A DNA stretch of 64,000 nucleotides from a virus. The position numbers and the translations under genes were made by a program. The notes beneath the pieces are model-generated. The model was not told where the DNA came from, did not search any database, and saw only the letters and a list, made by a program, of their open reading frames with translations. Positions 19,328 through 59,689 of this stretch are shown here, piece by piece. The stretch is taken from IMG/VR virus record IMGVR_UViG_3300037294_000405, positions 64,001 to 128,000 of that record. The stretch is one strand, 5' to 3'. Position 1 is the stretch's first letter; each line of letters begins with the position of its first letter.

Positions 19328-20218
19328 ATGACTACAGAAAACAACACATTAGACGCTATGCTTGCGCAGTATGAAAAAAACAATGCTCCAAGACCAGTAA
19401 AAACTGAAGCTAAGGTTTATGACCTTAAAAACTACTTTAATACTTATATTAAAGAAGGTATTGATAAAGCAACTAAGCAAATTAGAATTCTTCCAACAAA
19501 TGATGGTTCTACACCAATTGTGGAAATACACACCCATAAAGTTCAACTGGACGGTGAGTGGAAAACATTCGCATGTTTAAAACATGAAAAAGGTGAGGCT
19601 TGTCCTTTTTGTGAAGCTCGTGAGGCTCTATTATCGACAGGTAAAGATTCTGATAAAGAACTAGCTAAAAAATACAACGCACGTAAAATGTATGTGGTTA
19701 AAGTAATTGACAGAGAACGTGAAGATGAAGGCGTTAAATTCTGGAGATTTAACCATGATTACCGTAAAGAGGGTATCTATGATAAAATCATTGGTGTTCT
19801 TAATGCAATCAAAAAAGACGTTACAAACGCAGAAAATGGTCGTGATTTATTATTAACCATTAACAGAAACATGAATAGCATAGTTGTGTCGGGTGTCGCC
19901 TCACTTGACCCTTCTACGTTATCAGAAGACCAAGAATTAAAAGACTTGTGGTTGTCTGATTCTAGAGTATGGGAAGACGTTTATTCGGTAAGAACTTACG
20001 ATTACTTAGAAATTATAGTTAAAGGTGGAATTCCAGTATGGGATAAAGAAGAGAGAAAATTTGTTGCTAAAGAAGCATTAACCTCTGAAAACCCTAACGC
20101 TACTTTAGAGGCTGAGTTAACAATGGGTGTTGAGAACATCAAAGCTAACTTACAAGTTGCTGAAACTGCTGAAACTTCTTCTACTACTACTGAAGAAGAA
20201 GATGACTTACCTTTCTAA
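19328..20218 (+). CDS. Single-stranded DNA-binding protein, T4 gp32-like
   Basis: IRILP, H...C...CPFC zinc ligands, GRDLLL, acidic tail EEEDDLPF. Confidence 0.85.
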   Translation: MTTENNTLDAMLAQYEKNNAPRPVKTEAKVYDLKNYFNTYIKEGIDKATKQIRILPTNDGSTPIVEIHTHKVQLDGEWKTFACLKHEKGEACPFCEAREALLSTGKDSDKELAKKYNARKMYVVKVIDREREDEGVKFWRFNHDYRKEGIYDKIIGVLNAIKKDVTNAENGRDLLLTINRNMNSIVVSGVASLDPSTLSEDQELKDLWLSDSRVWEDVYSVRTYDYLEIIVKGGIPVWDKEERKFVAKEALTSENPNATLEAELTMGVENIKANLQVAETAETSSTTTEEEDDLPF

Positions 20219-20236
20219 TTTAAAATTAAACAAAAC

Positions 20237-20265
20237 AAAAAGAGGTGAGGAATTACCTCTTTTTT
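20237..20265 (+). terminator. Intrinsic terminator
   Basis: AAAAAGAGGT / ACCTCTTTTT hairpin. Confidence 0.7.
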
Positions 20266-20304
20266 GTTCTAAAATAATAAACAAACAAATAAAATTTATA
20301 ATAA

Positions 20305-21417
20305 ATGGCGACAAAACCACAAAAAAAAACAATTGAAAAAAAAGAATTTGATAATAAATCTATGAAAGCGTCATTAGGTTTAGGTGGTCAAATCGTTAAA
20401 GAAAAAGAATTAGCTTGGATTCCGTTTAAAAAAGCGTTCCACGATGCCGTAGGTCTTCCAGGGGTTCCACGTGGTTATACCTCACAATTTAGAGGTTTCT
20501 CGGATGTAGGTAAATCAACTAGTATTTACGAAACAATTTCTGGTGCTCAAAAATTGGGTGACTATATTGTAATATTTGACACAGAAGGAAGTTTTAGTTG
20601 GGAACACGCACGATTAGTTGGGTTTAAGTATACTGAAGTTTGCGATGAAGAAACTGGTGAGGTGATTGATTATGAAGGTGAAGATTTCCTTTATTTAGGT
20701 GGAATGGATTTAGTTAGTATGTATCAAAATTTTGACTACAAATCTGGTAAGCTGACAACATCACCACAACGTTACATTCCAGTCGTTGAAGATGTTGCAC
20801 ATGCAATGAATGACCTTATGGATAAGCAAATGAGAGGTGAATTAAATAGAAATATTACGTTCCTTTGGGATTCAATTGGTTCTATTGGTTGCTACGAAGG
20901 TGCTGTTTCAAACACAAACAACAACCAATGGACTGCTGGTGCGTTAAAAAGAGCTTTTGAGTCAATTCTAAACTTTAGAATTCCAGCTTCTAGAAGAGAA
21001 GACGCTCCTTTTATAAATACATTTGTCGCTGTGCAAAAAATCTGGTTAAGACCAAATGCCGTAGGTCAACCAACTGTTATGCACAATGGTGGTGAAGGTT
21101 TCAAATATGGTGTTAGACTCATTTTTCACATGGGTGGTATGACAACATCTTCAGCGAAAAAATTGGATGCGGTAAACGCTGGTAGAAGTTACCAATTTGG
21201 TGTTATGACTGACATAAAATGTGTTAAAAATCACGTAAATGGAATCGAACAAATGGGTTCTATCTGCTCAACACCACATGGGTTTGTGAACCCAACTGAA
21301 AAAAACGATTACGTTAAAGCAAACAAAGATTTCATTAACCAAAAGTTAGGTACATCATTTGATGATTTTGATGTTAAAGAAATCGCTTTAGATGCTGATG
21401 CATACGAAAAAGATTAA
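20305..21417 (+). CDS. uvsX: RecA/UvsX-like recombinase
   Basis: Walker A GFSDVGKST, FDTEG, Walker B FLWDSIG, KNH motif; follows gp32. Confidence 0.85.
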   Translation: MATKPQKKTIEKKEFDNKSMKASLGLGGQIVKEKELAWIPFKKAFHDAVGLPGVPRGYTSQFRGFSDVGKSTSIYETISGAQKLGDYIVIFDTEGSFSWEHARLVGFKYTEVCDEETGEVIDYEGEDFLYLGGMDLVSMYQNFDYKSGKLTTSPQRYIPVVEDVAHAMNDLMDKQMRGELNRNITFLWDSIGSIGCYEGAVSNTNNNQWTAGALKRAFESILNFRIPASRREDAPFINTFVAVQKIWLRPNAVGQPTVMHNGGEGFKYGVRLIFHMGGMTTSSAKKLDAVNAGRSYQFGVMTDIKCVKNHVNGIEQMGSICSTPHGFVNPTEKNDYVKANKDFINQKLGTSFDDFDVKEIALDADAYEKD

Positions 21418-29129: not shown

Positions 29130-29879
29130 ATGGCAAACGGTAAATACATAAACATAAATTACCCCAATATATACATATATGCTTTGGTTTCAGAAGAAGA
29201 CCAAAAAAACATTAAATATATTGGAGTAACTTCTAAAACACCTTCAAATCGATTAAGTAATCATATTTATGAAGCAAAAAAAACACCTAATAAAACTGAT
29301 AAAACAAAATGGATTACATCTGTAAATTATAAGTTAAAACAAATAATTTTAGATATTGTTGATTTTGAAACAGCATATTTTTGGGAACAATATTGGATAT
29401 CACAATTTAAAACATGGGGTTTTGTTTTAGTAAATTCAAATAATGGTGGTGGTGGTTTAGGTAAAAGAAGCATTGAATTTTCAGCTTGGTTAAGTAATAG
29501 GAATAAAGGTAATAAATATAATTTAGGTAAAACACATTCTGAAGATACTAAATTAAAAATGAGTAATAAAAAACTTGGTAAACCATCACCTAGAAAAGGT
29601 ATTGAAGTGTTAGAAAAAACCAAAGAAAAACAATCTAAAGCTAAAATAGGTAGTGTTGGTAATGCAACTGGTTTTAAACATACAGAAGAAACTAAAAATA
29701 AGAAAAGAAAAAAAGTTTTACAAATAAGTATTAATGGTCAAATAATAAATGAATTTACATCAGTATCTGATGTCTCAAATTATTTTTCTGTAAATATTTC
29801 TACTATATCAAAAAGATTAGATAAAAATAAAGAATATAAAGGTTTTATATTCAAAACTAAAATAGAAAACAATGGCTAA
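29130..29879 (+). CDS. GIY-YIG homing endonuclease (NUMOD3 repeats) fused in frame to a copy of the first 12 codons of the gp25 gene
   Basis: YIYAL...YIGVT...R...EQYWI...N; GKTHSEDTKLKMS, GFKHTEETK; N-terminus MANGKYININYP duplicates the downstream gene start. Confidence 0.85.
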   Translation: MANGKYININYPNIYIYALVSEEDQKNIKYIGVTSKTPSNRLSNHIYEAKKTPNKTDKTKWITSVNYKLKQIILDIVDFETAYFWEQYWISQFKTWGFVLVNSNNGGGGLGKRSIEFSAWLSNRNKGNKYNLGKTHSEDTKLKMSNKKLGKPSPRKGIEVLEKTKEKQSKAKIGSVGNATGFKHTEETKNKKRKKVLQISINGQIINEFTSVSDVSNYFSVNISTISKRLDKNKEYKGFIFKTKIENNG

Positions 29880-29907
29880 TGGTCGCTTTATAAACATAAA
29901 TTACCCC
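29166..29907 (+). mobile_element. Endonuclease cassette carrying a replacement 5' end of the gp25 gene
   Basis: 18-bp direct repeat ATAAACATAAATTACCCC at 29148-29165 and 29890-29907. Confidence 0.75.
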
Positions 29908-30258
29908 TTTAAGGATAGTAACAAAGGTTTTTTCTTAGATTTGAATGATGAAGATAGTCAAGCGATAAAAGCCGACCTTCTACATATAATATTAACTAGA
30001 AAAGGTCAAAGACTTTATAAACCAGACTTTGGTACTGATTTATTAAAATTTATCTTTGAACCACAAGATGGAATGACGTTAAATGCCGTTAAAGAAGAAA
30101 TTAAATCAGTAGTAAAACTTTATTTACCAAAATTACAATTAGATGAAATTTTAGTTGAAGAAGCTACCGAAAGCGAATACGCTGCTGTGTTCACTTTAAA
30201 ATATACAATAACAGATGCTGTTTTTACAACATCAGACATAGTAGTAGTAAAACTATAA
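29872..30258 (+). CDS. Baseplate wedge protein gp25/GPW family
   Basis: IKADLLHIILTRKGQRLYKPDFGTDL..FIFEP. Confidence 0.9.
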   Translation: MANGRFININYPFKDSNKGFFLDLNDEDSQAIKADLLHIILTRKGQRLYKPDFGTDLLKFIFEPQDGMTLNAVKEEIKSVVKLYLPKLQLDEILVEEATESEYAAVFTLKYTITDAVFTTSDIVVVKL

Positions 30259-48316: not shown

Positions 48317-48559
48317 ATGCCTAAATTAATCAAAAACATACAAGGTGAAGTGTTAACGAATGTTATAGATAATATTAGTTATATTTCCACAATTACAGGT
48401 GAGATACAACAAGAAGATTTCATTAACTTGAACGGTTTTGTTGCGTATTTACAGAATTTAACAAAAGCAGAAGAAACAACTGCTTTGACTATTCCACAAT
48501 CTTTTGGTTTACAGAATAGTTATAATAAAACAATGATTACACTAGAAATAAATTACTAA
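48317..48559 (+). CDS. Hypothetical protein
   Basis: 80 aa, TAATG coupling to next gene. Confidence 0.65.
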   Translation: MPKLIKNIQGEVLTNVIDNISYISTITGEIQQEDFINLNGFVAYLQNLTKAEETTALTIPQSFGLQNSYNKTMITLEINY

Positions 48560-49989
48560 TGAGATATCAAGAACCAATATACATTCAAAATGAAAACGGT
48601 GCGGTAAGAAACAAAGATATTCTGAATGTCAACATGAGTTCAGATATTTGTGTTTTTCAAAGCCCACAATATTCACTTAGTGGTGCATCTAAAATAGATT
48701 GTTCTGGTTCAACTAGCGGCACTTCTTATATTATTACTGCTACGATACAAAATATTCCTCTAACTTTTGATTTTACTGCGAACACTATTTCATTTATTGA
48801 TACTGGTGCTTTGTTTAGGTTTGAGGTTTATAAATATTCAGATATTTTTAGTGGGTTTAGTTCAACACCTGTATATAAATCAGAAACACTAAATTATTCG
48901 ACATTTAGCGCTACTAATATGACTACACAATATGTTCCATCTAGTGGTTTAACTCTTGATGGTGAATACATAATTAAACCATATTATTCTTTTGGTGTAT
49001 GTACTGATTTTTTGAGTAAATTAAACAAAACTGTCGACACATCGACATTCATTTCTGGAACAGAATACGGTATTTATGACAAAGAATTTGATTATTATTT
49101 TATGGCGATGAAACAAGCCGAAATACCTGTTTTAACACAAAATAGTAGTAATTCAGCTGAAATAGGTCAATTAACACAACAAGTAATTATACCTAGTGAT
49201 GGGCAAGTAACCTTTAATATTCAAAACGGTGTTATTGGTGATTTTGTTGTTACGTTAAACGGTTTGGTGTTAGCTTTAGGTGAAGATTATTCTTTTTCTG
49301 GTAATGTAGTATATTTGAGTGGTGAAACTTTTTCTGACGACATAATTACAGCTATTTATTCAACTAGTGGTGGTTACAATATGGTAAGTGATAACATAAA
49401 TATAAAAACACCTATTGTGAGTGGTTTTACTGATAGTCAAGGTTCTAATGATGTTTATTTTAACACAAACACTGATAAATACGAAATATATGCTTCAATT
49501 ACACCACAGGATGGTGGTAGTGTTATAGTGATGTTAAATGGAGCTACGTTAGCAAATAATATAGACTATTTCCAATCAATTACTAACCCAAAAAGAATTA
49601 TCCTTCAAGGTACGTTGATAGTTAACGATATTATAACAATAGTGTATTTTCCTAGAGCCACCTCTTCTATGGGTTTAAATACAAACACACCAATTGTATC
49701 TTGGGGTATAAACGAATCACCAACGATTCAAAATGGTTATTTTACCCTAGAGGTATCGACTGGTGATACATTTAATTCATTATATTATAGTGGTATTACG
49801 GATTATCAAGTCGGTGTTAGTTATTATAGTCAAGGTTTCGTTGCTGATGGAACAGTAGGTACTACTTTATACTATAGAGTAAAAAATGAAAAAAATTACA
49901 TAACTATTTGTGGTGATAACGTTAACAGTACATCGTATAGTGAAATAATTCCAGTGATAATTCAAAGTAATTCGATAAATTCGTATTAA
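48559..49989 (+). CDS. Putative tail/baseplate structural protein
   Basis: Two V.LNG..L....DY beta repeats and an FN3-like terminus (TTLYYRVKN). Confidence 0.6.
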   Translation: MRYQEPIYIQNENGAVRNKDILNVNMSSDICVFQSPQYSLSGASKIDCSGSTSGTSYIITATIQNIPLTFDFTANTISFIDTGALFRFEVYKYSDIFSGFSSTPVYKSETLNYSTFSATNMTTQYVPSSGLTLDGEYIIKPYYSFGVCTDFLSKLNKTVDTSTFISGTEYGIYDKEFDYYFMAMKQAEIPVLTQNSSNSAEIGQLTQQVIIPSDGQVTFNIQNGVIGDFVVTLNGLVLALGEDYSFSGNVVYLSGETFSDDIITAIYSTSGGYNMVSDNINIKTPIVSGFTDSQGSNDVYFNTNTDKYEIYASITPQDGGSVIVMLNGATLANNIDYFQSITNPKRIILQGTLIVNDIITIVYFPRATSSMGLNTNTPIVSWGINESPTIQNGYFTLEVSTGDTFNSLYYSGITDYQVGVSYYSQGFVADGTVGTTLYYRVKNEKNYITICGDNVNSTSYSEIIPVIIQSNSINSY

Positions 49990-50045: not shown

Positions 50046-52181
50046 ATGAGTTACATAATTAAAAACACAAGTCCGTTTGTTAGCATAAAGTTAACACAAA
50101 AAGGACGTGAGCAATTGGCCCAAGGTAAATTAAATTTTAATTACTGGGCAATTGGAGATTCTGAAATTAACTACAATAGAGAAGCTATTGTGGACGCAAA
50201 CCCTACTGACGTAACATTATCAGCAACTAGTGCTGTGTTTAGACCATTTGATAAACAACCAAATATAAAAACATTTATCACACCAAACGGTACCATCGAC
50301 CCATTTCAAACGGTTAATGGTTCGGTTTTAAATGTTGTCAAAGCGATTGTTAATAATGAAGCTGATGAAAGAGGGTTTTTTCAACGTTCTGGTTCAACAT
50401 TTACAACACTTACTGATTCAACTTATACTCTATTCTCAACAAACTTATCAAATTCAGTGTTTACTGGTGGTACTAGTTTTAACATTACAAGTACGGATAT
50501 AAATGTTGGTGATGTTATTTTAATCAAATTAGTGAATGACACAATTGGTAACATTATTAATAATGAAAACAGTAGAGCACTTCCAAATCTTTGGTTTAAA
50601 GTTCAAGCAACTGGAATTGGGTATGTTACTGTAGATAGAAACTTACCAAATTTATCTGCTCAAACTGCATCAAGCCAAGTTATTGTTTATAGAGGTGGTG
50701 AGGTTTACGAAACTATAGCTACTGGAACAACAACGGCTTATTGGGATTCTGGTACTTTATCTTTTGATTCAAACGTAAATGTTACGTGTCAAGATGTCCC
50801 AGTTTGGAATATGAATAATGTTTGGTGTGAAGATATTGCTGGTGTTACTGGTTTGTCTACTACTAACTTATACGAAAACTACACTAAGTTTGGTTCGTAT
50901 AGATATTTAGGCGCTAAAAACCCTTATATGGAATATCTTTGTCAATCAACTGGTCAAACTCTAACATTTAATTGTAACGGTCCAGGTGTAAGTTATCCAG
51001 ATGATGTGGTTAAATCTATTTCTATTATTCACTACACAAATAATACTATATCTAATTTATATGGTGAATTCTTTTACACTGATTCAGTATCTGGTAAGTA
51101 TTTGAGTTTGCATATGCCAGATTTAATGTATCATAGGCATTCTGGTACTACTGGTAGTGGAACATCTATGGGTATGACATTTATAGCTACAGGTGCAACA
51201 CAAGTAATGACTAATAGTGATATAGAATATATTGATTTAATTGAAGACCCTACACTAATCGCTTTGGCATCGACACCTAAAGTTGTTGGTAGAATTTACC
51301 CGCAATTAAAAACATGTGTTATTCATGACGATGAAATTGTTGCGGCAACTTCTTATAAATCAAACAGAAACTGGACACTCCCAGAATTAGCTGCAACATT
51401 ACAAGCACCTACTGGTGGTACATCTAATGGTGTATTAGCCATTAACGATACAATGTATTTAACGTACATTTTAGAAAACACTACAGGTACTGGTTTAACG
51501 ACTTCTATGTCTTGCCAAGAATATATCAAAATAACAAATAATACTTCATCTGCTAAAGATGTTGCATTTAGAATCAACGAAACTGATTTATTACCTTACA
51601 TGCGTAAATTAGAATCTGGTTATGATGGTTACGGTTTTTATGCTGATAAATTCACATTAGTTTATCAAATGGTACAAGACCCAACTGACCGTCCAGACCC
51701 AGGAGCGTGGAAAGCTTTTGATTTTACAACAACAGCAATTACTGGTGGTGCTGGTGAAACTATTGACCCTAAATTATTAGAAGGTCAAACACCAACAACG
51801 ACTGGGTTTATTATTGATAAATTAAAAGACTTGTCAGCAACAACATTTAGTCTTATCGCTGCGTTAAATTTACCAGCAAACACACAACCAGAAGAATTAC
51901 AATTCGGTGATGAAAGATTCTTTTACGGAAATTTAACAACATTCATCGGTGCAACAATATACAAAACAATCTTCGATATTAGAGTTGACGCTAGCCTGTT
52001 TAATACGACTACTAACCCAACTAGAAGCAAAGATTTGTTAACAAACCCACCAAATATTAAAATTACTGAGGTAGGAATTTACGATACGGATAAAAATCTT
52101 GTATGTATTGGTAAATTATCTAATCCAGTTCCTTTGGTTGGTGGTAATATAATAATGATTGAATTATCAATGGACTTTTAA
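50046..52181 (+). CDS. Baseplate/tail-fibre attachment protein
   Basis: N-terminal KLTQKGREQLA...GDSEINY, C-terminal ITEVGIYD...LVCIGKLSNPV. Confidence 0.6.
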   Translation: MSYIIKNTSPFVSIKLTQKGREQLAQGKLNFNYWAIGDSEINYNREAIVDANPTDVTLSATSAVFRPFDKQPNIKTFITPNGTIDPFQTVNGSVLNVVKAIVNNEADERGFFQRSGSTFTTLTDSTYTLFSTNLSNSVFTGGTSFNITSTDINVGDVILIKLVNDTIGNIINNENSRALPNLWFKVQATGIGYVTVDRNLPNLSAQTASSQVIVYRGGEVYETIATGTTTAYWDSGTLSFDSNVNVTCQDVPVWNMNNVWCEDIAGVTGLSTTNLYENYTKFGSYRYLGAKNPYMEYLCQSTGQTLTFNCNGPGVSYPDDVVKSISIIHYTNNTISNLYGEFFYTDSVSGKYLSLHMPDLMYHRHSGTTGSGTSMGMTFIATGATQVMTNSDIEYIDLIEDPTLIALASTPKVVGRIYPQLKTCVIHDDEIVAATSYKSNRNWTLPELAATLQAPTGGTSNGVLAINDTMYLTYILENTTGTGLTTSMSCQEYIKITNNTSSAKDVAFRINETDLLPYMRKLESGYDGYGFYADKFTLVYQMVQDPTDRPDPGAWKAFDFTTTAITGGAGETIDPKLLEGQTPTTTGFIIDKLKDLSATTFSLIAALNLPANTQPEELQFGDERFFYGNLTTFIGATIYKTIFDIRVDASLFNTTTNPTRSKDLLTNPPNIKITEVGIYDTDKNLVCIGKLSNPVPLVGGNIIMIELSMDF

Positions 52182-52182
52182 T

Positions 52183-53385
52183 ATGGGATTTAATAACACT
52201 GCAACAACACTTACGCTAACGGCTAAGTTAACTCCACTTGGTAGACAAAAAATTGTATCTACCAATAATGCATTAATCAAAACTTTTAGTCTTGGTGACT
52301 CAGATGCTAATTACCACACTAACTTAACACTAGGTACTGGTCAAATACCTGGAATTGGTGGTGATATTGGTACTAACTCTACAATTAGTAATAGTACAAC
52401 ACAGTCTATTGGTATGAAAACTATGCTTATAGTAAACTCTAGTGGTGTGTTAACCAAACCTGTTTCTTCTCAATCAATTAATGTTTTGTCCGAAATAATA
52501 CCTAATGGTGTGGTTACGGTTAATGCTGCTAATATATCACAATCTTTAGTTAATAGAAACGACATAACTACTGATAACTTGGTTAATTTATTTTATTCAT
52601 TTGGTTTACCTTTAAACACTAATGATGACACAAAATATACTGGTATTACTTACACGAATGGTGGTTACTCCGATACTGCTTTAAGTGCTTTTAGTGCAAC
52701 AAAAATACTTGTAATTGCGATAAATAATAATAACTACGGTGAGTGTATTGATGGTAAAACATTTAAACTTGAACTACCAACATCTGCTGGGACGTATACT
52801 ATTTATTCTACTTATTTAGGTGGGAACAATACATTGGTAACATTAGATAATCTTATTTCAGATAACGCATTGCAAACTAATCAATTTGGTAATAATGTGG
52901 CTGCTTTGGTTTCTGATGATATCATGAAACCAAATGGCGGTGATGCGGCTAAAAGTTGGGCTACGGGTTATAATACTGAAAAACCGTTCTCGTTAAACCA
53001 AAAACAAACATACAATTTTCAAACAAATTCTAATTTAGGTGTTACGGCTGACACATTGGTTGGTATGGTTTATTTAGATAAAGGGTTTGCTGTCATTACT
53101 GACCAAACAATAGTAAATAATTTCAATCAATCTGCTTCAACAGCAACGACAGTAATGTTTAATAGTGTTTCAACAAATGTATATCAAAGTATAACATGTA
53201 TTGCTGATAGAGGTGAGTTCGGTTCAACAACAAACCCTACTTTTGATATTGGAGATATCCCTAGAATTAGTGAAGTTGGTTTATTTGATGATGCTGGTAA
53301 TTTAATTGCTGTCGCTAAAACAGACCGTCACATAATAAAAAACGTTAACGAATTTTTGGCTTTGGGAATAAAAATAACTCTTTAA
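52183..53385 (+). CDS. Baseplate/tail-fibre attachment protein, paralogue of the preceding gene
   Basis: Start at ATG 52183; KLTPLGRQK...LGDSDANY and ISEVGLFD...LIAVAK. Confidence 0.6.
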   Translation: MGFNNTATTLTLTAKLTPLGRQKIVSTNNALIKTFSLGDSDANYHTNLTLGTGQIPGIGGDIGTNSTISNSTTQSIGMKTMLIVNSSGVLTKPVSSQSINVLSEIIPNGVVTVNAANISQSLVNRNDITTDNLVNLFYSFGLPLNTNDDTKYTGITYTNGGYSDTALSAFSATKILVIAINNNNYGECIDGKTFKLELPTSAGTYTIYSTYLGGNNTLVTLDNLISDNALQTNQFGNNVAALVSDDIMKPNGGDAAKSWATGYNTEKPFSLNQKQTYNFQTNSNLGVTADTLVGMVYLDKGFAVITDQTIVNNFNQSASTATTVMFNSVSTNVYQSITCIADRGEFGSTTNPTFDIGDIPRISEVGLFDDAGNLIAVAKTDRHIIKNVNEFLALGIKITL

Positions 53386-53430
53386 GGTTTATTTTTTTTG
53401 TTTATAGGTTAAATTAATGTAAAAAGTGTT

Positions 53431-53493
53431 ATGATTAAAGAACCAGAATTTTTATTGGCGTTAGATGTATCAACATCAAAATTATTTAATTAA
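53431..53493 (+). pseudogene. Orphaned 5' end of ruvC
   Basis: MIKEPEFLLALDVSTSKLFN*; 13 of 14 residues match KEPEFLLSLDVSTS of the intact gene. Confidence 0.85.
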
Positions 53494-53552
53494 AGTGTCA
53501 TTAAAATACAACTTTTTATTTTATCGTGATATTTATAATAAACAAAAATATT

Positions 53553-53702
53553 ATGGCAAGACCAAAATTAAAAGAAGAAGATAAAAAAATTAGACTAGGT
53601 GTAACAATATCTAGAGAACTATATAAAAAAATTGATTCGGAAACAAACAATAAATCTGAATTTATTGAGAAACTATTAACTAAATATTTTTATGAAAAGT
53701 AA
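53553..53702 (+). CDS. Small ribbon-helix-helix-like DNA-binding protein (absent from ORF track)
   Basis: MARPKLKEEDKKIRLGVTISRELYKKIDSETNNKSEFIEKLLTKYFYEK, 49 aa; TATTTATA at 53530; overlaps the endonuclease start. Confidence 0.7.
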   Translation: MARPKLKEEDKKIRLGVTISRELYKKIDSETNNKSEFIEKLLTKYFYEK

Positions 53703-54441
53703 TGGTATTTATAGGATAGTTAATAATATAAACGGTAAAGTTTATATTGGAAGTACTGGAAGCAAAGGTGGTTTTAAAAAAAGATGGTCATATCATTTAA
53801 CTGATTTGAAACAAAATAAACACCATTCCAGACATTTACAAAGAGCTTGGAATAAATATGGTGAAAATTCATTTGTATTTGGAATAATAGAAATAATTGA
53901 AAATTTTACTAAAGAAACGTTATTAATTAGAGAACAATATTATTTAGATTTATATAAATCATATGATGTTAATTTAGGTTATAATATATGTAAGAATGCT
54001 GGTAGTTCTTTAGGTGTTAAAAAAACACCAGAACAAATAAAACAAATGTCTGAGTTAAGAAAAGGAAAACCAATACCATGGTTGAATAATGGTCAACCAA
54101 GAAGTAAAGAGCATATAGAAAATTTAAAAAATGCCTGTATTGGTAAAATATCTGAGAAATTAGATAAGACATATGAAGAAATTTACGGTGAGGAAAAAGC
54201 TATAAAATTAAAGAAAAAATTAAGTGAATCACATATTGGGGTTAATACTGGTGAAAAACACCCGAAAGCAAAATTAGTACAACAATTTGATATGGATAAT
54301 AATTTAATTAACGAATTCAGTTGTTCAATTACAGCTAGCGAAGTATTAAATATACCAGCAAAAAGTATAAGAATGTGTTGTGGTGGGTTTGCAAAAACAG
54401 CATATGGTTTTAAATGGAAATATAAAAATTATGAAAAATAA
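53692..54441 (+). CDS. GIY-YIG homing endonuclease, I-TevI-like catalytic domain with NUMOD tail
   Basis: GIYRI...YIGST...R...H..HLQRAWNKYG...REQYYL...GYN; C-terminal TAYGFKWKY. Confidence 0.9.
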   Translation: MKSNGIYRIVNNINGKVYIGSTGSKGGFKKRWSYHLTDLKQNKHHSRHLQRAWNKYGENSFVFGIIEIIENFTKETLLIREQYYLDLYKSYDVNLGYNICKNAGSSLGVKKTPEQIKQMSELRKGKPIPWLNNGQPRSKEHIENLKNACIGKISEKLDKTYEEIYGEEKAIKLKKKLSESHIGVNTGEKHPKAKLVQQFDMDNNLINEFSCSITASEVLNIPAKSIRMCCGGFAKTAYGFKWKYKNYEK

Positions 54442-55093
54442 AATAGAAAAAGAACCAGAATTTCTTTTAAGTCTGGATGTATCAACTTCAACCATTGGTA
54501 TTGCATTATTTGAAGATATGGGTAACAAGGGTGAATTAAAACTTTTACACCATGTATCACCAAAAGTTAAACCAAAACCAGAAACAAAAACGGAAGAATT
54601 GTTTAGGAAAATTGAAATATTTGAAAATGAATTTCTTTCACACTATAGTGATTTTGGTATTACTAGGGTTGTTATCGAAGAACCACTACTTCAGTCAAAC
54701 AATGTTTACACGATTGCCACCTTATTAAGGTTTAATGGTATGATTTCAAAATCTATTTACGATACTTTAGGTATTGTACCAGAGTTCATCTCTTCTTATG
54801 ATGCACGTAAATACGCATTTCCAGAGCTTATGGACGTTAGAAAAGCAAAAAAGGATGGAACACCTTTAGCTGATAAACAAATAGCTAAAAACGCTCCTGT
54901 GTTGTTTGGGGGTTATCCATTTAATGTTGACAAGAAAATGGTGATTTTCGAAAATGTATGTGATTTAGAACCGCAAATAAAATGGATGTTAGATAAAAAA
55001 AATAAACTAAAAAAAGAAAATTTCGACATGAGTGATGCCTATGCTTGTGGGTTAGCTTGGTTTAACCTTAGAAAGATAAAAAGAGATAATTAA
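54431..55093 (+). CDS. ruvC: RuvC-like Holliday junction resolvase
   Basis: LSLDVSTSTIG, VVIEEP, FDMSDAY; start placed at ATG 54431. Confidence 0.8.
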   Translation: MKNKIEKEPEFLLSLDVSTSTIGIALFEDMGNKGELKLLHHVSPKVKPKPETKTEELFRKIEIFENEFLSHYSDFGITRVVIEEPLLQSNNVYTIATLLRFNGMISKSIYDTLGIVPEFISSYDARKYAFPELMDVRKAKKDGTPLADKQIAKNAPVLFGGYPFNVDKKMVIFENVCDLEPQIKWMLDKKNKLKKENFDMSDAYACGLAWFNLRKIKRDN

Positions 55094-55107
55094 TTATCTC
55101 TTTTTAT
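55076..55107. terminator. Perfect 32-bp palindrome at convergent ruvC/HNH stops, probable bidirectional terminator
   Basis: ATAAAAAGAGATAATTAATTATCTCTTTTTAT. Confidence 0.7.
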
Positions 55108-55836
55108 TACTCTATTTATATAACCACATAATGGTTTAAGGTTAGTATAGTGGTTAAGTTTAATTAATTCGTCTTCACACATTGCTTTTGATTGTGGTAT
55201 GATATGGTCAATATCCCAACCATAATTTTTTGTCCCATTATATATTCCTCTATTATCCCAAGTCATCCATGATTCCCAAAGTGATTCAATATGTTGTTTA
55301 AAATATTCATAAGAACATCCTAATATTTCATGTGACCTAGATTTTTTAGTAAACCCATTCTTTTTTAATGCGCTGTTAATCATTCGATTCATATAACATC
55401 TTAAATTAAAAACTGGGTCGATTTTTTTTCTTTCTTTTGTTTTTTCATTTCGAATCTGTTTATATTGTTCGTTATACTCTTTGTAGTATTCTGGATTTTT
55501 ATTATTCCATTCTTTTTTATAATTCGGGTTATTAATAACCCATTCTTTTTGCTTTTCTTTTATGTTAAGAATATTTTCCTCTCTATATTTTTTTGATGTC
55601 TCTTTTATATTTTCTATGTTATTATAATAATAACTTTTACTTTTTTGTTTAATTATTTCGCTGTTATCCTTATAATATTCTTTAATTGTTTCGCTGTTAT
55701 CCTTATAATATTCTTTAGAATAATTCGAATTACATATTTTACATATTGTTCTTAATCCATCTTTAGTAATTTTATGTTTACCAAATTCTGTTATTGGTTT
55801 TAATACTTCACATTTTTTACATTTTTTAATTTCCAT
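55090..55836 (-). CDS. HNH homing endonuclease with N-terminal zinc finger
   Basis: CKKC...CKIC, K/E/Y-rich linker, WDIDHIIP...NHYTNLKPL...N. Confidence 0.85.
   Translation of the reverse strand: MEIKKCKKCEVLKPITEFGKHKITKDGLRTICKICNSNYSKEYYKDNSETIKEYYKDNSEIIKQKSKSYYYNNIENIKETSKKYREENILNIKEKQKEWVINNPNYKKEWNNKNPEYYKEYNEQYKQIRNEKTKERKKIDPVFNLRCYMNRMINSALKKNGFTKKSRSHEILGCSYEYFKQHIESLWESWMTWDNRGIYNGTKNYGWDIDHIIPQSKAMCEDELIKLNHYTNLKPLCGYINRVIKRDN
55648..55717. repeat. 33-bp tandem duplication in the HNH linker
   Basis: Encodes KEYYKDNSE(T/I)I twice; one mismatch. Confidence 0.8.
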
Positions 55837-55900
55837 AATCTTGTTTTATTATAAATATATTGAAATTACAAAAAAACATATTTTTTTAAGTTTGTGATAC

Positions 55901-56074
55901 AAGAAATATGTTTTATGGGAAAAAGTTGCTGAATTAGAACCACAAGTTACTTGGTTTTATGATAAAAACAACAAATTAAAAAAGGAAACATTCGATACAT
56001 CTGACGCATACGTTTGTGCTATAGGTTATATGAATAAAATAGGTCTTTGGCCTAGGCAACCAAATCAATTCTAA
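55901..56074 (+). pseudogene. Orphaned 3' end of ruvC
   Basis: KKYVLWEKVAELEPQVTWFYDKNNKLKKETFDTSDAYVCAIGYMNKIGLWPRQPNQF*; 25 of the first 39 residues match the intact gene; no start codon at its 5' edge. Confidence 0.88.
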
Positions 56075-56079
56075 AATTA

Positions 56080-56111
56080 TTTGGAAAAACAGTTTTAATT
56101 TCGTACCTTTG
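56080..56111 (+). promoter_or_regulatory. Bacteroidota-type promoter, probable leaderless primase mRNA
   Basis: TTTG(56080-56083)-N20-TACCTTTG(56104-56111); ATG at 56116. Confidence 0.75.
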
Positions 56112-56115
56112 TCGA

Positions 56116-57072
56116 ATGGCAATGTTATTAGTTAACATATTAGAAAGTTTTTTAGGTGAAACTAGAAAACATAATGAAGACACTGGGCAAATCGCATTTG
56201 ATTGTCCAGCATGTTCTGCTGAAAAAGGTTTAATAGATGGTGATGGTAAAGGTAATCTAGAGATTAACTATCAAATGAACAAGTTTAAATGTTGGTCATG
56301 TCATGAAATTAACCATATGCGTGGCCCAGTTTTAAAACTTTTAAAAAAATACGCAACACCTAAAAATATTCGAGATTATTTATTGGTAAAACCAGATGCT
56401 GAATTTATTACCAATATAGAACGTGAACGAGTATTATTAACCCTACCAGAAGGGTATAAACGACTGTCTGATTGCACAGAAAAAGACTACAAAGCAAATT
56501 TAGCGTTAAATTATTTAAAAACCAGAGGTATTACAGATGATATCATAGATGAATACGATATTGGTTATACTTATCGTGGTAAATTCTTCAATAGGATAAT
56601 TATTCCGTCTTACGATTCGGAAGGTGAATTAAATTATTTTATCGCTAGATGGTTTGATAAAGAATACACAAAATTAAAGTATCTAAATCCAGACGCTGAA
56701 AAACAAGAAATCATATTTAACGAAGGGCGATTGAACTTAGATGCAACAATTTATTTAGTTGAGGGCGCAACTGACCACATAGTAACACCAAATTCTATTC
56801 CATTACTAGGTAAATTCCTTTCAAATAATCTTTTAGAGTTATTGCATGATAAGTCAGCTGGTTTTGTTGTGATTGTTTTAGATGATGATGCGTGGGAAGA
56901 TGCTAAAATTTTGTATCAACAACTAAATTTTGGTAACTTAAGAGGTAGAATAAAATTAGTTAGACCACCAGAGGGTTATGACCCATCTAAGATTTATGAA
57001 AATTTAGGTAATAAGGGTATGACTAAACTTCTTATGGGTGCTTTTAAACCAGAGGATAAAGATGTATATTAA
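56116..57072 (+). CDS. DNA primase (DnaG/gp61-like)
   Basis: CPAC...CWSC zinc finger, YLKTRGI, RIIIP, KYLNP, EGATD, DDDA Toprim. Confidence 0.9.
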   Translation: MAMLLVNILESFLGETRKHNEDTGQIAFDCPACSAEKGLIDGDGKGNLEINYQMNKFKCWSCHEINHMRGPVLKLLKKYATPKNIRDYLLVKPDAEFITNIERERVLLTLPEGYKRLSDCTEKDYKANLALNYLKTRGITDDIIDEYDIGYTYRGKFFNRIIIPSYDSEGELNYFIARWFDKEYTKLKYLNPDAEKQEIIFNEGRLNLDATIYLVEGATDHIVTPNSIPLLGKFLSNNLLELLHDKSAGFVVIVLDDDAWEDAKILYQQLNFGNLRGRIKLVRPPEGYDPSKIYENLGNKGMTKLLMGAFKPEDKDVY

Positions 57073-57455
57073 ATTGAGACAAAACCAGTATCCGTAGTGG
57101 TTGCAAAACCATTAGAGACTAAACTACCCCATACATTTTCTGCATCTGGTGATAAATAATCATCAGAATATAATTTTTTATCTTCTTTGGCGAGTGTTCT
57201 AATAATGTATTTATACATACCTTTACCCAAGCCTTGGTTTCTAAATTTATCATAAAGAACCACCCCAAATATTTTATAACCGTCTTCAAATGGTTTAAGT
57301 CTAAAACCACCCATTCTTTCGTTTTCGTAAAAAGGTATAAAAACTAACAAATTATTCACTATTTGTCTTTTTATTTTTATCTTAGATGTATCAATTTTTT
57401 CGTTTTCAGATTCTAATATTGCTTTTCTAAACTGTTCTTTAATAAAATCTTTCAT
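57069..57455 (-). CDS. GNAT-fold acetyltransferase-like protein
   Basis: Motif A FRNQGLGKGMY; SPDAENVW; own TATTTATA motif at 57469-57476. Confidence 0.7.
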   Translation of the reverse strand: MKDFIKEQFRKAILESENEKIDTSKIKIKRQIVNNLLVFIPFYENERMGGFRLKPFEDGYKIFGVVLYDKFRNQGLGKGMYKYIIRTLAKEDKKLYSDDYLSPDAENVWGSLVSNGFATTTDTGFVSI

Positions 57456-57477
57456 GGTATTCTTTTAATATAAATAC

Positions 57478-57508
57478 TTGCAATATAGAATAAAATTTCG
57501 TACCTTTG
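57478..57508 (+). promoter_or_regulatory. Bacteroidota-type promoter
   Basis: TTG(57478)-N20-TACCTTTG(57501-57508). Confidence 0.75.
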
Positions 57509-57522
57509 TAATAAAAGTAAAT

Positions 57523-58305
57523 ATGAGTAAAGCTAAATTATGGGAAGGTCCAGTATTTCTAGAACCAATAGAACATAAATACCATCACAGGGTAACTGGT
57601 AAGACTTATAAGTCAGTTACGACAACCCTTTCATCGATTGAACCTCACTTTGATTCAGAGGCGGTTTCAGCTGCTATCGTAAACCAATTAGATAACGTTA
57701 AACAAGAACGTTATATCGGTTTAACACAACAACAAATACTTGATTTTTGGCAAATGCTTAATGATGAAGCGAATGTATATGGTACTAAGGTCCATGACAT
57801 CGTTGAGCGTTATTTATTAGCTAACAAATGGTATTTTCCAACAGATGATGAAGAAGGTGAGTTTGAACAATGCGTTATAGATGGTTTTAATGCGTTAAAA
57901 ATTGATGAGGGTGTGGCAATGTGGCCAGAACGTATATTGTTTTCTGAACAATACGAGTTAGCTGGTATGTCTGACCTTATTATAGATATTGATGAAAAAT
58001 ACTTTGATGTGTGGGATTGGAAAACAAATAGAGAGTTTAACTTCTTTAACCAATACGGTAATGAAACGTTGTTTAAACCTTTTGACCACTTACAAGCGTG
58101 TCAATGGTCAATTTATACGCTTCAGTTAAGTGTTTATACATATATGTATGAATTAGAGTTTACTGGGCGTAAATGTAGACAAATATGTATTGGGTATTGG
58201 GATAAAGAGAAAAAAACTTTTGAAAAAATTCAAATTATGTATTTGAAACATGAAGCTAAAAAGCTTATTGAGATGCATCACTATAACTTAATGAAAAACT
58301 TATAA
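57523..58305 (+). CDS. PD-(D/E)XK exonuclease
   Basis: SVTT, GTKVH, E...LAGMSD...DWKT, QLSVY; start moved to ATG 57523 downstream of the promoter. Confidence 0.8.
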   Translation: MSKAKLWEGPVFLEPIEHKYHHRVTGKTYKSVTTTLSSIEPHFDSEAVSAAIVNQLDNVKQERYIGLTQQQILDFWQMLNDEANVYGTKVHDIVERYLLANKWYFPTDDEEGEFEQCVIDGFNALKIDEGVAMWPERILFSEQYELAGMSDLIIDIDEKYFDVWDWKTNREFNFFNQYGNETLFKPFDHLQACQWSIYTLQLSVYTYMYELEFTGRKCRQICIGYWDKEKKTFEKIQIMYLKHEAKKLIEMHHYNLMKNL

Positions 58306-58306
58306 T

Positions 58307-59689
58307 ATGATATTAGAGGAAAATTTTTTGAAACTACCAAAAATAGTTGACGGATTGACGGTTAAAAAAACCACAATTATACAAAAACCTAATATTGACA
58401 CGTTAACTAAAGAACAATTAGAAATATTTAACGAGATAACTAAAATTTCAACTAATGTGTTTTCACAATCTTTATTGACGGGTTATTCTGGTACTGGAAA
58501 ATCTTTTTTGGTGTCTAAGATAATTGAAGAATTGTTATTTATGAAAAAATCGATTAGGATAGCGATAACTGCACCTACAAATAAAGCTGTTAGAGTGTTA
58601 AAAAATCTATCGATGATTAGTGATGATAATGTTAGGGTTGATTTTATTACGTTACATTCATTATTAGGTCTTAAACGTAATATAACGCATGAGGGTAAGG
58701 AAGAATATAAACAATTATTTAATGGTGGCAACTTGGATGAATATAGTGTTGTTTTAGTTGATGAGGTTTCTATGTTAGATAATGAACTTTACGGGGTCTT
58801 AAAATCTCAAGCAGAAATAAATAAAATAATGCTTTTGTTTATTGGAGATAGAGGTCAAATACCACCAGTTAATGGTGGTGAATCAATTTTGTTTAATAGT
58901 TTGTTAGATAATAATTACAATTTAACTGAAATTATTCGTCAATCTAATGGAAACCCAATAATTAAATTGGCTCAAACTATTAGACAAAACGAAAAGTTTG
59001 AAAAAGAAACTATAATAGATGAAAAGAACAATGGGGTTGCGTATTTGAAAATAAACACTGAACAATTATTGTTAGATACATATTTTAATTCTGAACATTT
59101 TAGAAAAAACGCTAATTTTGTTAAAGTATTAGCGTGGACCAATAGTGCTGTTAATTATTATAATTCTAAAATCAGAACATTAATTTATGGTGAAAATTGC
59201 GGTAAATTATGTGTTGGTGAAAAAATGGTTTGTAATAAACCTATCACCAACAGTAAAAACCAAGTAATATTAAATAATAACGATGAATTTGAGGTCATAT
59301 CTTTTGTTATGAAAAAAGAAACTAGAAGTTATGATTTTTCATATTATGAAGTGACTATTAATTGTGATGGGAATATCCTCAAGATTAAATTATTGGCCGA
59401 AAAATCTGAAACCGCTTTTTCTAAACAAGTTAATGTTTTAAAAAAAGCCGCTGAAAACGCCAAAGTTATGGGTAGAAGAAGCGCTTGGACAAAATACTAT
59501 AGATTTTTAGAAAGATATGCTGATGTTAAATACAACTACGCTTTAACTGTTCATAAATCACAAGGTAGTACGTTTGATAATGTTATAGTCATTAATGTAG
59601 ATATAAATAGGGTTTTAAACCAAATCGAACGAAATAAATTGTTATATACAGCTATAACTAGAGCTAAGAATAGGTTATTTGTTATTTAA
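58307..59689 (+). CDS. dda: SF1 DNA helicase, Dda/RecD-like
   Basis: GYSGTGKS, APTNKA, DEVSM, GDRGQIPPV, IIRQ, TVHKSQGST, YTAITRA. Confidence 0.88.
   Translation: MILEENFLKLPKIVDGLTVKKTTIIQKPNIDTLTKEQLEIFNEITKISTNVFSQSLLTGYSGTGKSFLVSKIIEELLFMKKSIRIAITAPTNKAVRVLKNLSMISDDNVRVDFITLHSLLGLKRNITHEGKEEYKQLFNGGNLDEYSVVLVDEVSMLDNELYGVLKSQAEINKIMLLFIGDRGQIPPVNGGESILFNSLLDNNYNLTEIIRQSNGNPIIKLAQTIRQNEKFEKETIIDEKNNGVAYLKINTEQLLLDTYFNSEHFRKNANFVKVLAWTNSAVNYYNSKIRTLIYGENCGKLCVGEKMVCNKPITNSKNQVILNNNDEFEVISFVMKKETRSYDFSYYEVTINCDGNILKIKLLAEKSETAFSKQVNVLKKAAENAKVMGRRSAWTKYYRFLERYADVKYNYALTVHKSQGSTFDNVIVINVDINRVLNQIERNKLLYTAITRAKNRLFVI

Follow-up and report, generated by a model that had tools for sequence, protein, structure and literature searches.

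Putative terminus-replacing homing elements at both ends of a phage ruvC gene

Introduction

The window analyzed here is a stretch of 64,000 nucleotides that forms part of a 155,282-bp virus record with a GC content of 31%. Within it, an intact ruvC gene is flanked on each side by an endonuclease gene, and an orphan copy of the adjacent ruvC end lies beyond each of these nuclease genes. Which copies of the two ends are native to the gene, and how did a nuclease come to lie between two versions of the same end? A preliminary description proposed that the cassettes insert into ruvC and supply a captured, diverged gene end, and this proposal is supported below by empty alleles and discordant trees. 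The relatives of the window are uncultured and are found on contigs of up to 369 kb. A search of named phages with the RuvC sequence gave no match, and no cultured relative was found.

Results

Layout of the ruvC Locus

In most relatives a conserved gene of 400 aa is followed by ~50 nt, ruvC, ~40 nt and the primase gene. Both gaps flanking ruvC are ~1 kb longer in the window than in most relatives. Re-examination of the window reproduced the six-piece order and the coordinates reported earlier, together with the identities of the orphans to the intact gene (13 of 14 residues at the 5'-end and 25 of 39 at the 3'-end). The cassette junctions are located at 53478/53479 and 55900/55901.

The orphan 5'-end (53431–53478, plus strand) comprises 16 codons from the ATG at 53431 to the DVSTS motif. 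Its homology to ruvC stops at 53478, at a Ser of this motif, and it then reads through four cassette-derived codons to a stop at 53491–53493. The left edge of the 5'-cassette (53479–53552, plus strand) carries the promoter-like motif ATATTTATA at 53529–53537. It is followed on the same strand by a gene for a 49-aa RHH-like protein (53553–53702), a GIY-YIG endonuclease gene with a NUMOD1 tail (53692–54441; PF01541, E of 1e-8, and PHROG) and the intact ruvC gene (54431–55093; PHROG 159, E of 3e-9). The latter is composed of a replacement 5'-end attributed to the GIY-YIG cassette (54431–54490, right limit approximate), a host core that includes the invariant Glu83 (54491–54931) and a replacement 3'-end attributed to the HNH cassette (54932–55093). 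An HNH-type endonuclease gene lies antisense at 55090–55836 (minus strand; PF01844, E of 8e-4; PHROG 1035). Its promoter region and the right edge of the 3'-cassette occupy 55837–55900 (minus strand), with ATATTTATA at 55858–55850. The orphan 3'-end (55901–56074, plus strand) contains 57 codons and a stop; it is preceded by an in-frame stop and has no start codon.

The motif ATATTTATA is found upstream of 24 of the 146 ORFs of the genome, several nuclease genes among them, mostly 15–28 nt before the ATG. In each nuclease unit at ruvC it precedes the start by ~22–24 nt. It is a candidate for a phage late promoter. A TAnnTTTG motif is also present at 56095–56117, directly before the primase start, with no obvious Shine-Dalgarno sequence, a combination that we take to suggest a Bacteroidota host.

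The RuvC Protein

The modeled ruvC product folds as RuvC (pLDDT of 92.5), and its top Foldseek matches are the RuvC structures 7xhj, 7w8d, 6lw3, 6s16 and 4ktw. A sequence search of the PDB gave at most a weak RuvX-type match, and the identity of the protein was settled by the fold search. Four acidic residues, D16, E83, D199 and D202, do not vary across 43 homologues; they correspond to D7, E66, D138 and D141 of the E. coli enzyme. The product is thus predicted to be a RuvC resolvase with an RNase H-like fold and a D/E/D/D active site. It shares the fold and the four acidic residues with the resolvases in the PDB (7xhj, 6lw3, 4ktw and 1hjr), whereas its identity to them is 10–16% and it is ~60 residues longer. 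The catalytic Asp16 (54476) lies on the replaced start and both Asp199 and Asp202 lie on the replaced end; three of the four active-site residues are therefore on pieces attributed to the cassettes.

The Two Nuclease Cassettes

The RHH and GIY-YIG cassette occupies one site in six genomes (the window, L083, L084, L004, L047 and L231), in which the genes upstream of ruvC are 56–62% identical to those of the window. Each carrier has its own orphan 5'-end, and the left-edge sequence is conserved in L083, L084, L004 and L047. In L231 the orphan stops a few codons earlier and extra DNA is inserted; here (1289–1546) the orphan start now opens an 85-codon ORF ahead of the RHH gene. The RHH-like protein is 90–96% identical among orthologous cassettes and is probably a cassette regulator, with the RHH name resting on a weak match (RHH_1, E of 0.057). 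The GIY-YIG protein, with its motifs, its DNA-binding tail and a PF01541 match above the cutoff, is a predicted homing endonuclease. Its catalytic-type motifs are kept in six orthologues, with dN/dS of 0.12–0.40; we assume that the conserved Arg, Glu and Asn residues have the roles known from I-TevI. The new start of ruvC and the GIY-YIG stop overlap. Several carriers use a start codon for ruvC that lies in another frame of the GIY-YIG tail, which would couple translation of the nuclease and ruvC.

The HNH protein scores 20 against PF01844, for which the cutoff is 21.4, and its best PHROG is endonuclease VII-like; a DH...N...N/H-type motif is visible and conserved. Orthologues from the protein search form a tight group at 68–80% identity, followed by matches at ~60% or less. 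They were predicted to lie at ruvC ends, and all six that were looked up are located there in antisense orientation. The cassette sits at one site in the five carriers checked at the DNA level, the window included, with 64–68 nt between the HNH start and the orphan 3'-end in each of the five. In the four other carriers the expressed ruvC ends are of the KKMVIF type and match that of the window at 103–107 of 120 nt, and the ruvC cores are 75–78% alike to that of the window. The dN/dS of the HNH gene is 0.21 versus L166.

A perfect palindrome of 32 bp (55076–55107; z of –5.6 and –5.8) spans the convergent stop codons of ruvC and HNH. It is common to L004, L244 and L245 and missing in L166, L246 and L247. 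The palindrome gives ruvC and HNH the same five terminal residues and is a candidate two-way terminator. It is confined to one sub-lineage of the HNH cassette, and assemblers break there.

The breakage of independent contigs at this palindrome is what could be cited for an assembly chimera of two related phage strains. Two contigs from SRR12693670, which may be the window's own sample, match positions 51192–55105 and 55078–58336 at 100%. The junction across the palindrome is also present in L004, L244 and L245, however, and both cassettes are found again, with identical junctions, in samples unrelated to one another; traces of the two cassettes on a single gene are seen in L004 and in L001. 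The same ruvC layout and junctions in independent genomes are not expected by chance, and a chimera is scarcely credible.

Self-splicing group I/II introns or inteins, with the orphans as real exons, would be a familiar explanation given that phage homing endonuclease genes are frequently intron-borne. The earlier reading had seen no intein motifs and had argued that an intron would not need a duplicated terminus. The units are separate ORFs with no intein Pfam match, the ruvC ORF is complete without splicing, and no intron was matched in Rfam, where the search gave one chance-level match. Only 74 and 64 nt of noncoding DNA are available. Splicing is excluded for want of room and of an Rfam match; in addition, the HNH gene is antisense and the orphans decay, with an Asp to Tyr change and a stop in the 5'-orphan of L047 and a stop in that of L004. 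We regard this explanation as highly improbable.

Origin of the Orphan and Expressed Ends

Comparison with cassette-free (empty) alleles indicates that the orphans are the native ruvC ends and that the expressed ends are foreign. The orphan start of the window matches the empty allele L173 at 34 of 36 nt, versus 26 of 36 for the expressed start; the empty allele L020 fits the two starts about equally (30 and 29 of 36). The orphan also begins ~50 nt downstream of the preceding gene, as ruvC does in most relatives. At the other end, the orphan matches four empty alleles, L020 among them, at 97–105 of 120 nt, versus 78–82 for the expressed end, and is 85–92% identical in amino acid sequence to many cassette-free relatives.

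Empty alleles equal to orphan plus core had been predicted, and these were found. A second, unrelated GIY-YIG gene occupies the identical 5'-site in L240, which was compared with the empty allele L059: the flanks are 99% identical, the rest of ruvC is identical, and the L240 orphan start equals the L059 start (36/36 nt), versus 24/36 for the expressed start. For the HNH carrier L245 and the empty allele L018, the core is 97% identical and the orphan matches at 119/120 nt, versus 81/120 for the expressed end. The same relation holds for L004 and L192 (orphan 35/36, replacement 24/36) and for L166 and L032 (orphan 106/120, replacement 88/120). The core sequence is host-type up to the junctions. 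A predicted nuclease gene thus lies between two versions of the ruvC end, the host ORF is intact and the empty alleles match the orphan, as expected of a terminus-replacing element.

Transfer between Phages

The nuclease genes have dS values of 0.35, 0.57 and 0.76 versus 1.09, 1.52 and 1.75 for flanking genes, so that their synonymous divergence is lower by a factor of two to three. The core tree contains the pairs L166/L032 and L004/L192, both of them starred, and places the window with L173, L177 and L179. In the C-terminal tree, which is short and has few strongly supported branches, the carriers group together. The approximately unbiased (AU) test rejects a single clade of carriers for the core (p of 2e-82) and rejects the core sisters for the C-terminus (p of 2e-5 and 0.002). 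The core and C-terminal trees, as called for in the preliminary description, therefore disagree, and in both directions. The replaced start is too short for a tree, and comovement of the 5'-cassette is judged from the identities and dS values. These comparisons show that the nuclease and the replacement end transfer together, that the insertion sites of the units are fixed, that the units pass from one phage to another across considerable divergence, and that the end native to the recipient is stranded as an orphan.

These observations bear on whether the nucleases might be ordinary intergenic homing endonucleases, like those of T4 seg/mob, with targets at other places, and the duplicated ends inherited scars of one-off illegitimate recombination. 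The free-standing nucleases of T4 cleave at sites far from the genes that encode them and coconvert the flanks (PMC2988022), and illegitimate recombination may be how a cassette first arose. The orphan, however, varies by host and fits each host's own empty twin, which means that it is made anew at each invasion. The second GIY-YIG family at the same 5'-site in L240 and a core that is host-type right to the junctions also speak against scars, and we judge this explanation unlikely.

Proposed Mechanism

The ruvC locus very likely carries two independent terminus-replacing homing elements. Each unit would consist of a promoter, an endonuclease gene and a divergent version of the ruvC end next to it. 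During coinfection the nuclease would cut the empty allele near the junction, and repair from the donor would use the donor's orphan and the ruvC core as homology arms. The product would be a full-length, three-part RuvC for which neither RNA nor protein splicing is required.

The earlier suggestion that the cassettes split their own cut site is plausible for the interrupted orphan. It fails as the whole account, since in the expressed copy the gene end is again continuous with the native core, and protection there must come from a changed sequence. Immunity would accordingly come from site interruption in the orphan and from recoding in the expressed copy. Changes shared by carriers cluster 16–25 nt before the 5'-junction and lie mostly 6–58 nt after the 3'-junction. 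Diagnostic positions include –10, –6, –4 and –1 relative to the Asp codon at the 5'-end and +6, +7, +16, +17 and +28 at the 3'-end. I-TevI cuts 23–25 nt from its own insertion site (PMC2988022). By-eye inspection near the 5'-junction found no convincing I-TevI-type cleavage motif. A Ser is located two residues ahead of the catalytic Asp in all six carriers, versus an Ala in 55 of 75 empty alleles; the Fisher p of 4e-4 is indicative at most, because the carriers are not statistically independent. The orphan of L084 already has the Ser-type spelling, and immunity must therefore depend on more than the Ser change.

Loss of the Nuclease

Within the sequences compared, the foreign end can persist after loss of the nuclease unit, with stages of loss in L001, L004, L014, L218 and L219. 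In L001 and L002 (93–97% identical to the window) 770 bp of the RHH and GIY-YIG genes are gone and the orphan and new starts are kept; the HNH gene was lost via recombination between replacement and orphan, which produced a chimeric ruvC end. L004 retains the replacement end with ~45 nt of the HNH tail. In L014 the native upstream region is joined to a start that is nearly identical to the replacement of the window over ~48 nt. The L218, L219 and L053 series leads from a remnant of the GIY-YIG tail to alleles that lack the cassette and share the same unusual start. L003, L165 and L026 have no nuclease but end in cassette-type sequence; these ends are probably footprints, although they could be donors; the more distant cassette-type C-termini of L005, L011, L024 and L036 could instead be old natural alleles. 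A separate ~1-kb insert is observed in L001 (7625–8628), within a PD-(D/E)XK gene, and is absent from the window at ~58021–58023.

The chimeric end of L001 and the stop-free 57 codons of the 3'-orphan could also be taken to mean that the orphans serve the gene as spare ends, either for switching (as in phase variation or the orphan modules of Rhs/CDI systems) or as separately expressed fragments. Deletion between direct repeats explains L001, however, and an orphan free of stops is what a recent invasion would leave. With a 3'-orphan that has no start codon and 5'-orphans that decay, a spare-end function is very unlikely.

Duplicated Ends at Other Genes

Eight cases of duplicated ends are found in the genome of the window, both ruvC ends included. 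The others are the ends of a neck gene and an SNF2 gene, the starts of a gp25-like gene and a membrane-protein gene and, with weaker short stubs, the end of a zinc-ribbon protein gene and the start of the gene at genome positions 20009–20851. The SNF2 helicase gene (genome positions 48500–48950, minus strand, outside the window) has two C-termini side by side and no intervening nuclease; this is probably a cassette from which the nuclease was deleted. At 29130–30258 of the window the opening 12 codons of the gp25-like gene are joined to a GIY-YIG gene, and the replacement start lies downstream; here the orphan doubles as the nuclease's own start.

At the primase start, the 99% twins L006/L007 and L062/L003 show cassettes with orphans identical to the empty allele. 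Antisense RHH and GIY-YIG genes are located in the primase start of L006 (5690–6800), L062 (5680–6870), L024 (5690–6900) and L014 (4010–5060). The cassette supplies a replacement start and upstream region, and the orphan is gone in L014. An antisense HNH gene lies in the primase 3'-end of L029 (6780–7600) with a 24-codon orphan, and a GIY-YIG gene lies in the 3'-end of the upstream 400-aa gene of L014 (2650–3355), with the old end just before ruvC.

Discussion

Terminus replacement had been put forward as a third route to harmless homing, and it is already described in yeast and in fungal mitochondria. WHO elements occupy the FBA1 locus of yeast (Coughlan et al. 2020, PMC7282813), and Osborne et al. 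(2026, bioRxiv 10.64898/2026.08.13.744650) class them as a third category of homing element. WHO6 provides the precedent with demonstrated cleavage, in which sensitive alleles are cut and the replaced end is resistant. Like the ruvC cassettes as proposed here, WHO elements combine an endonuclease with a resistant copy of a host gene end, use no splicing, displace the old end and use it as a homology arm, and show discordant trees and later decay. The WHO proteins are intein-derived LAGLIDADG/zinc-finger nucleases that are meiotic, affect 3' halves only and occur in tandem clusters, whereas the ruvC cassettes have GIY-YIG and HNH nucleases, reside in phages, act at both ends and supply ends of 16–55 codons. 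Membership in the WHO family proper was rejected, since these nucleases are unrelated and the target is ruvC rather than FBA1.

Fungal mitochondrial mORFs form gene hybrids in Allomyces atp6 and in Glomus atp6, atp9, cox2 and nad3 (PMC3630166). They likewise consist of a foreign C-terminus and a LAGLIDADG or GIY-YIG gene, with the native C-terminus downstream and closer to relatives. They differ in being organellar, in affecting C-termini only and in having a same-strand nuclease that is often in frame, whereas the ruvC HNH gene is antisense with its own promoter motif. N-terminus exchange through gain and loss of a mobile insert is also known from a system described as introns; the ruvC locus has no detectable intron.

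In phages, free-standing homing endonuclease genes include T4 seg/mob, Aeh1 mobE in nrdA and mobA in gene 60 (PMC2988022) and the islands of ICP1 (PMC10448857). These are likewise intron-less GIY-YIG or HNH genes beside or in essential genes, with coconversion of the flanks. In the text covered, they are intergenic or split a gene into two polypeptides, with no replacement end plus orphan described, and the reviews cover intergenic, intron, gene-splitting and collaborative arrangements rather than terminus replacement. No phage paper on terminus replacement was found; most subscription journals lay outside the coverage of the search, and this is weak evidence of absence. Relative to WHO elements and mORFs, the new features are the phage setting, the 5' version, the use of both ends of one gene and the several nuclease families.

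We lean, by a modest degree, toward terminus replacement as a general and unpublished homing mode in large phages. It would act at either end of a gene with GIY-YIG, HNH, LAGLIDADG or Vsr-like nucleases and leave a permanent foreign end that outlives the nuclease, so that nuclease-target conflict rather than function would shape the ends of ruvC. The target itself belongs to recombination, and enzymes of its kind are implicated in homing repair. The locus provides an unusually complete natural series of alleles that are empty, occupied at either or both ends, or decayed. Because the junctions and both alleles are known to the base, substrates are ready for finding the targets of the two new nucleases and for testing an arms-race model. 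A homing route so far known from yeast nuclei and fungal mitochondria would be extended to phages and to 5'-ends; it would explain sub-gene mosaicism in conserved phage genes, a mosaicism that distorts trees built from marker genes and goes unseen once the nuclease has been deleted.
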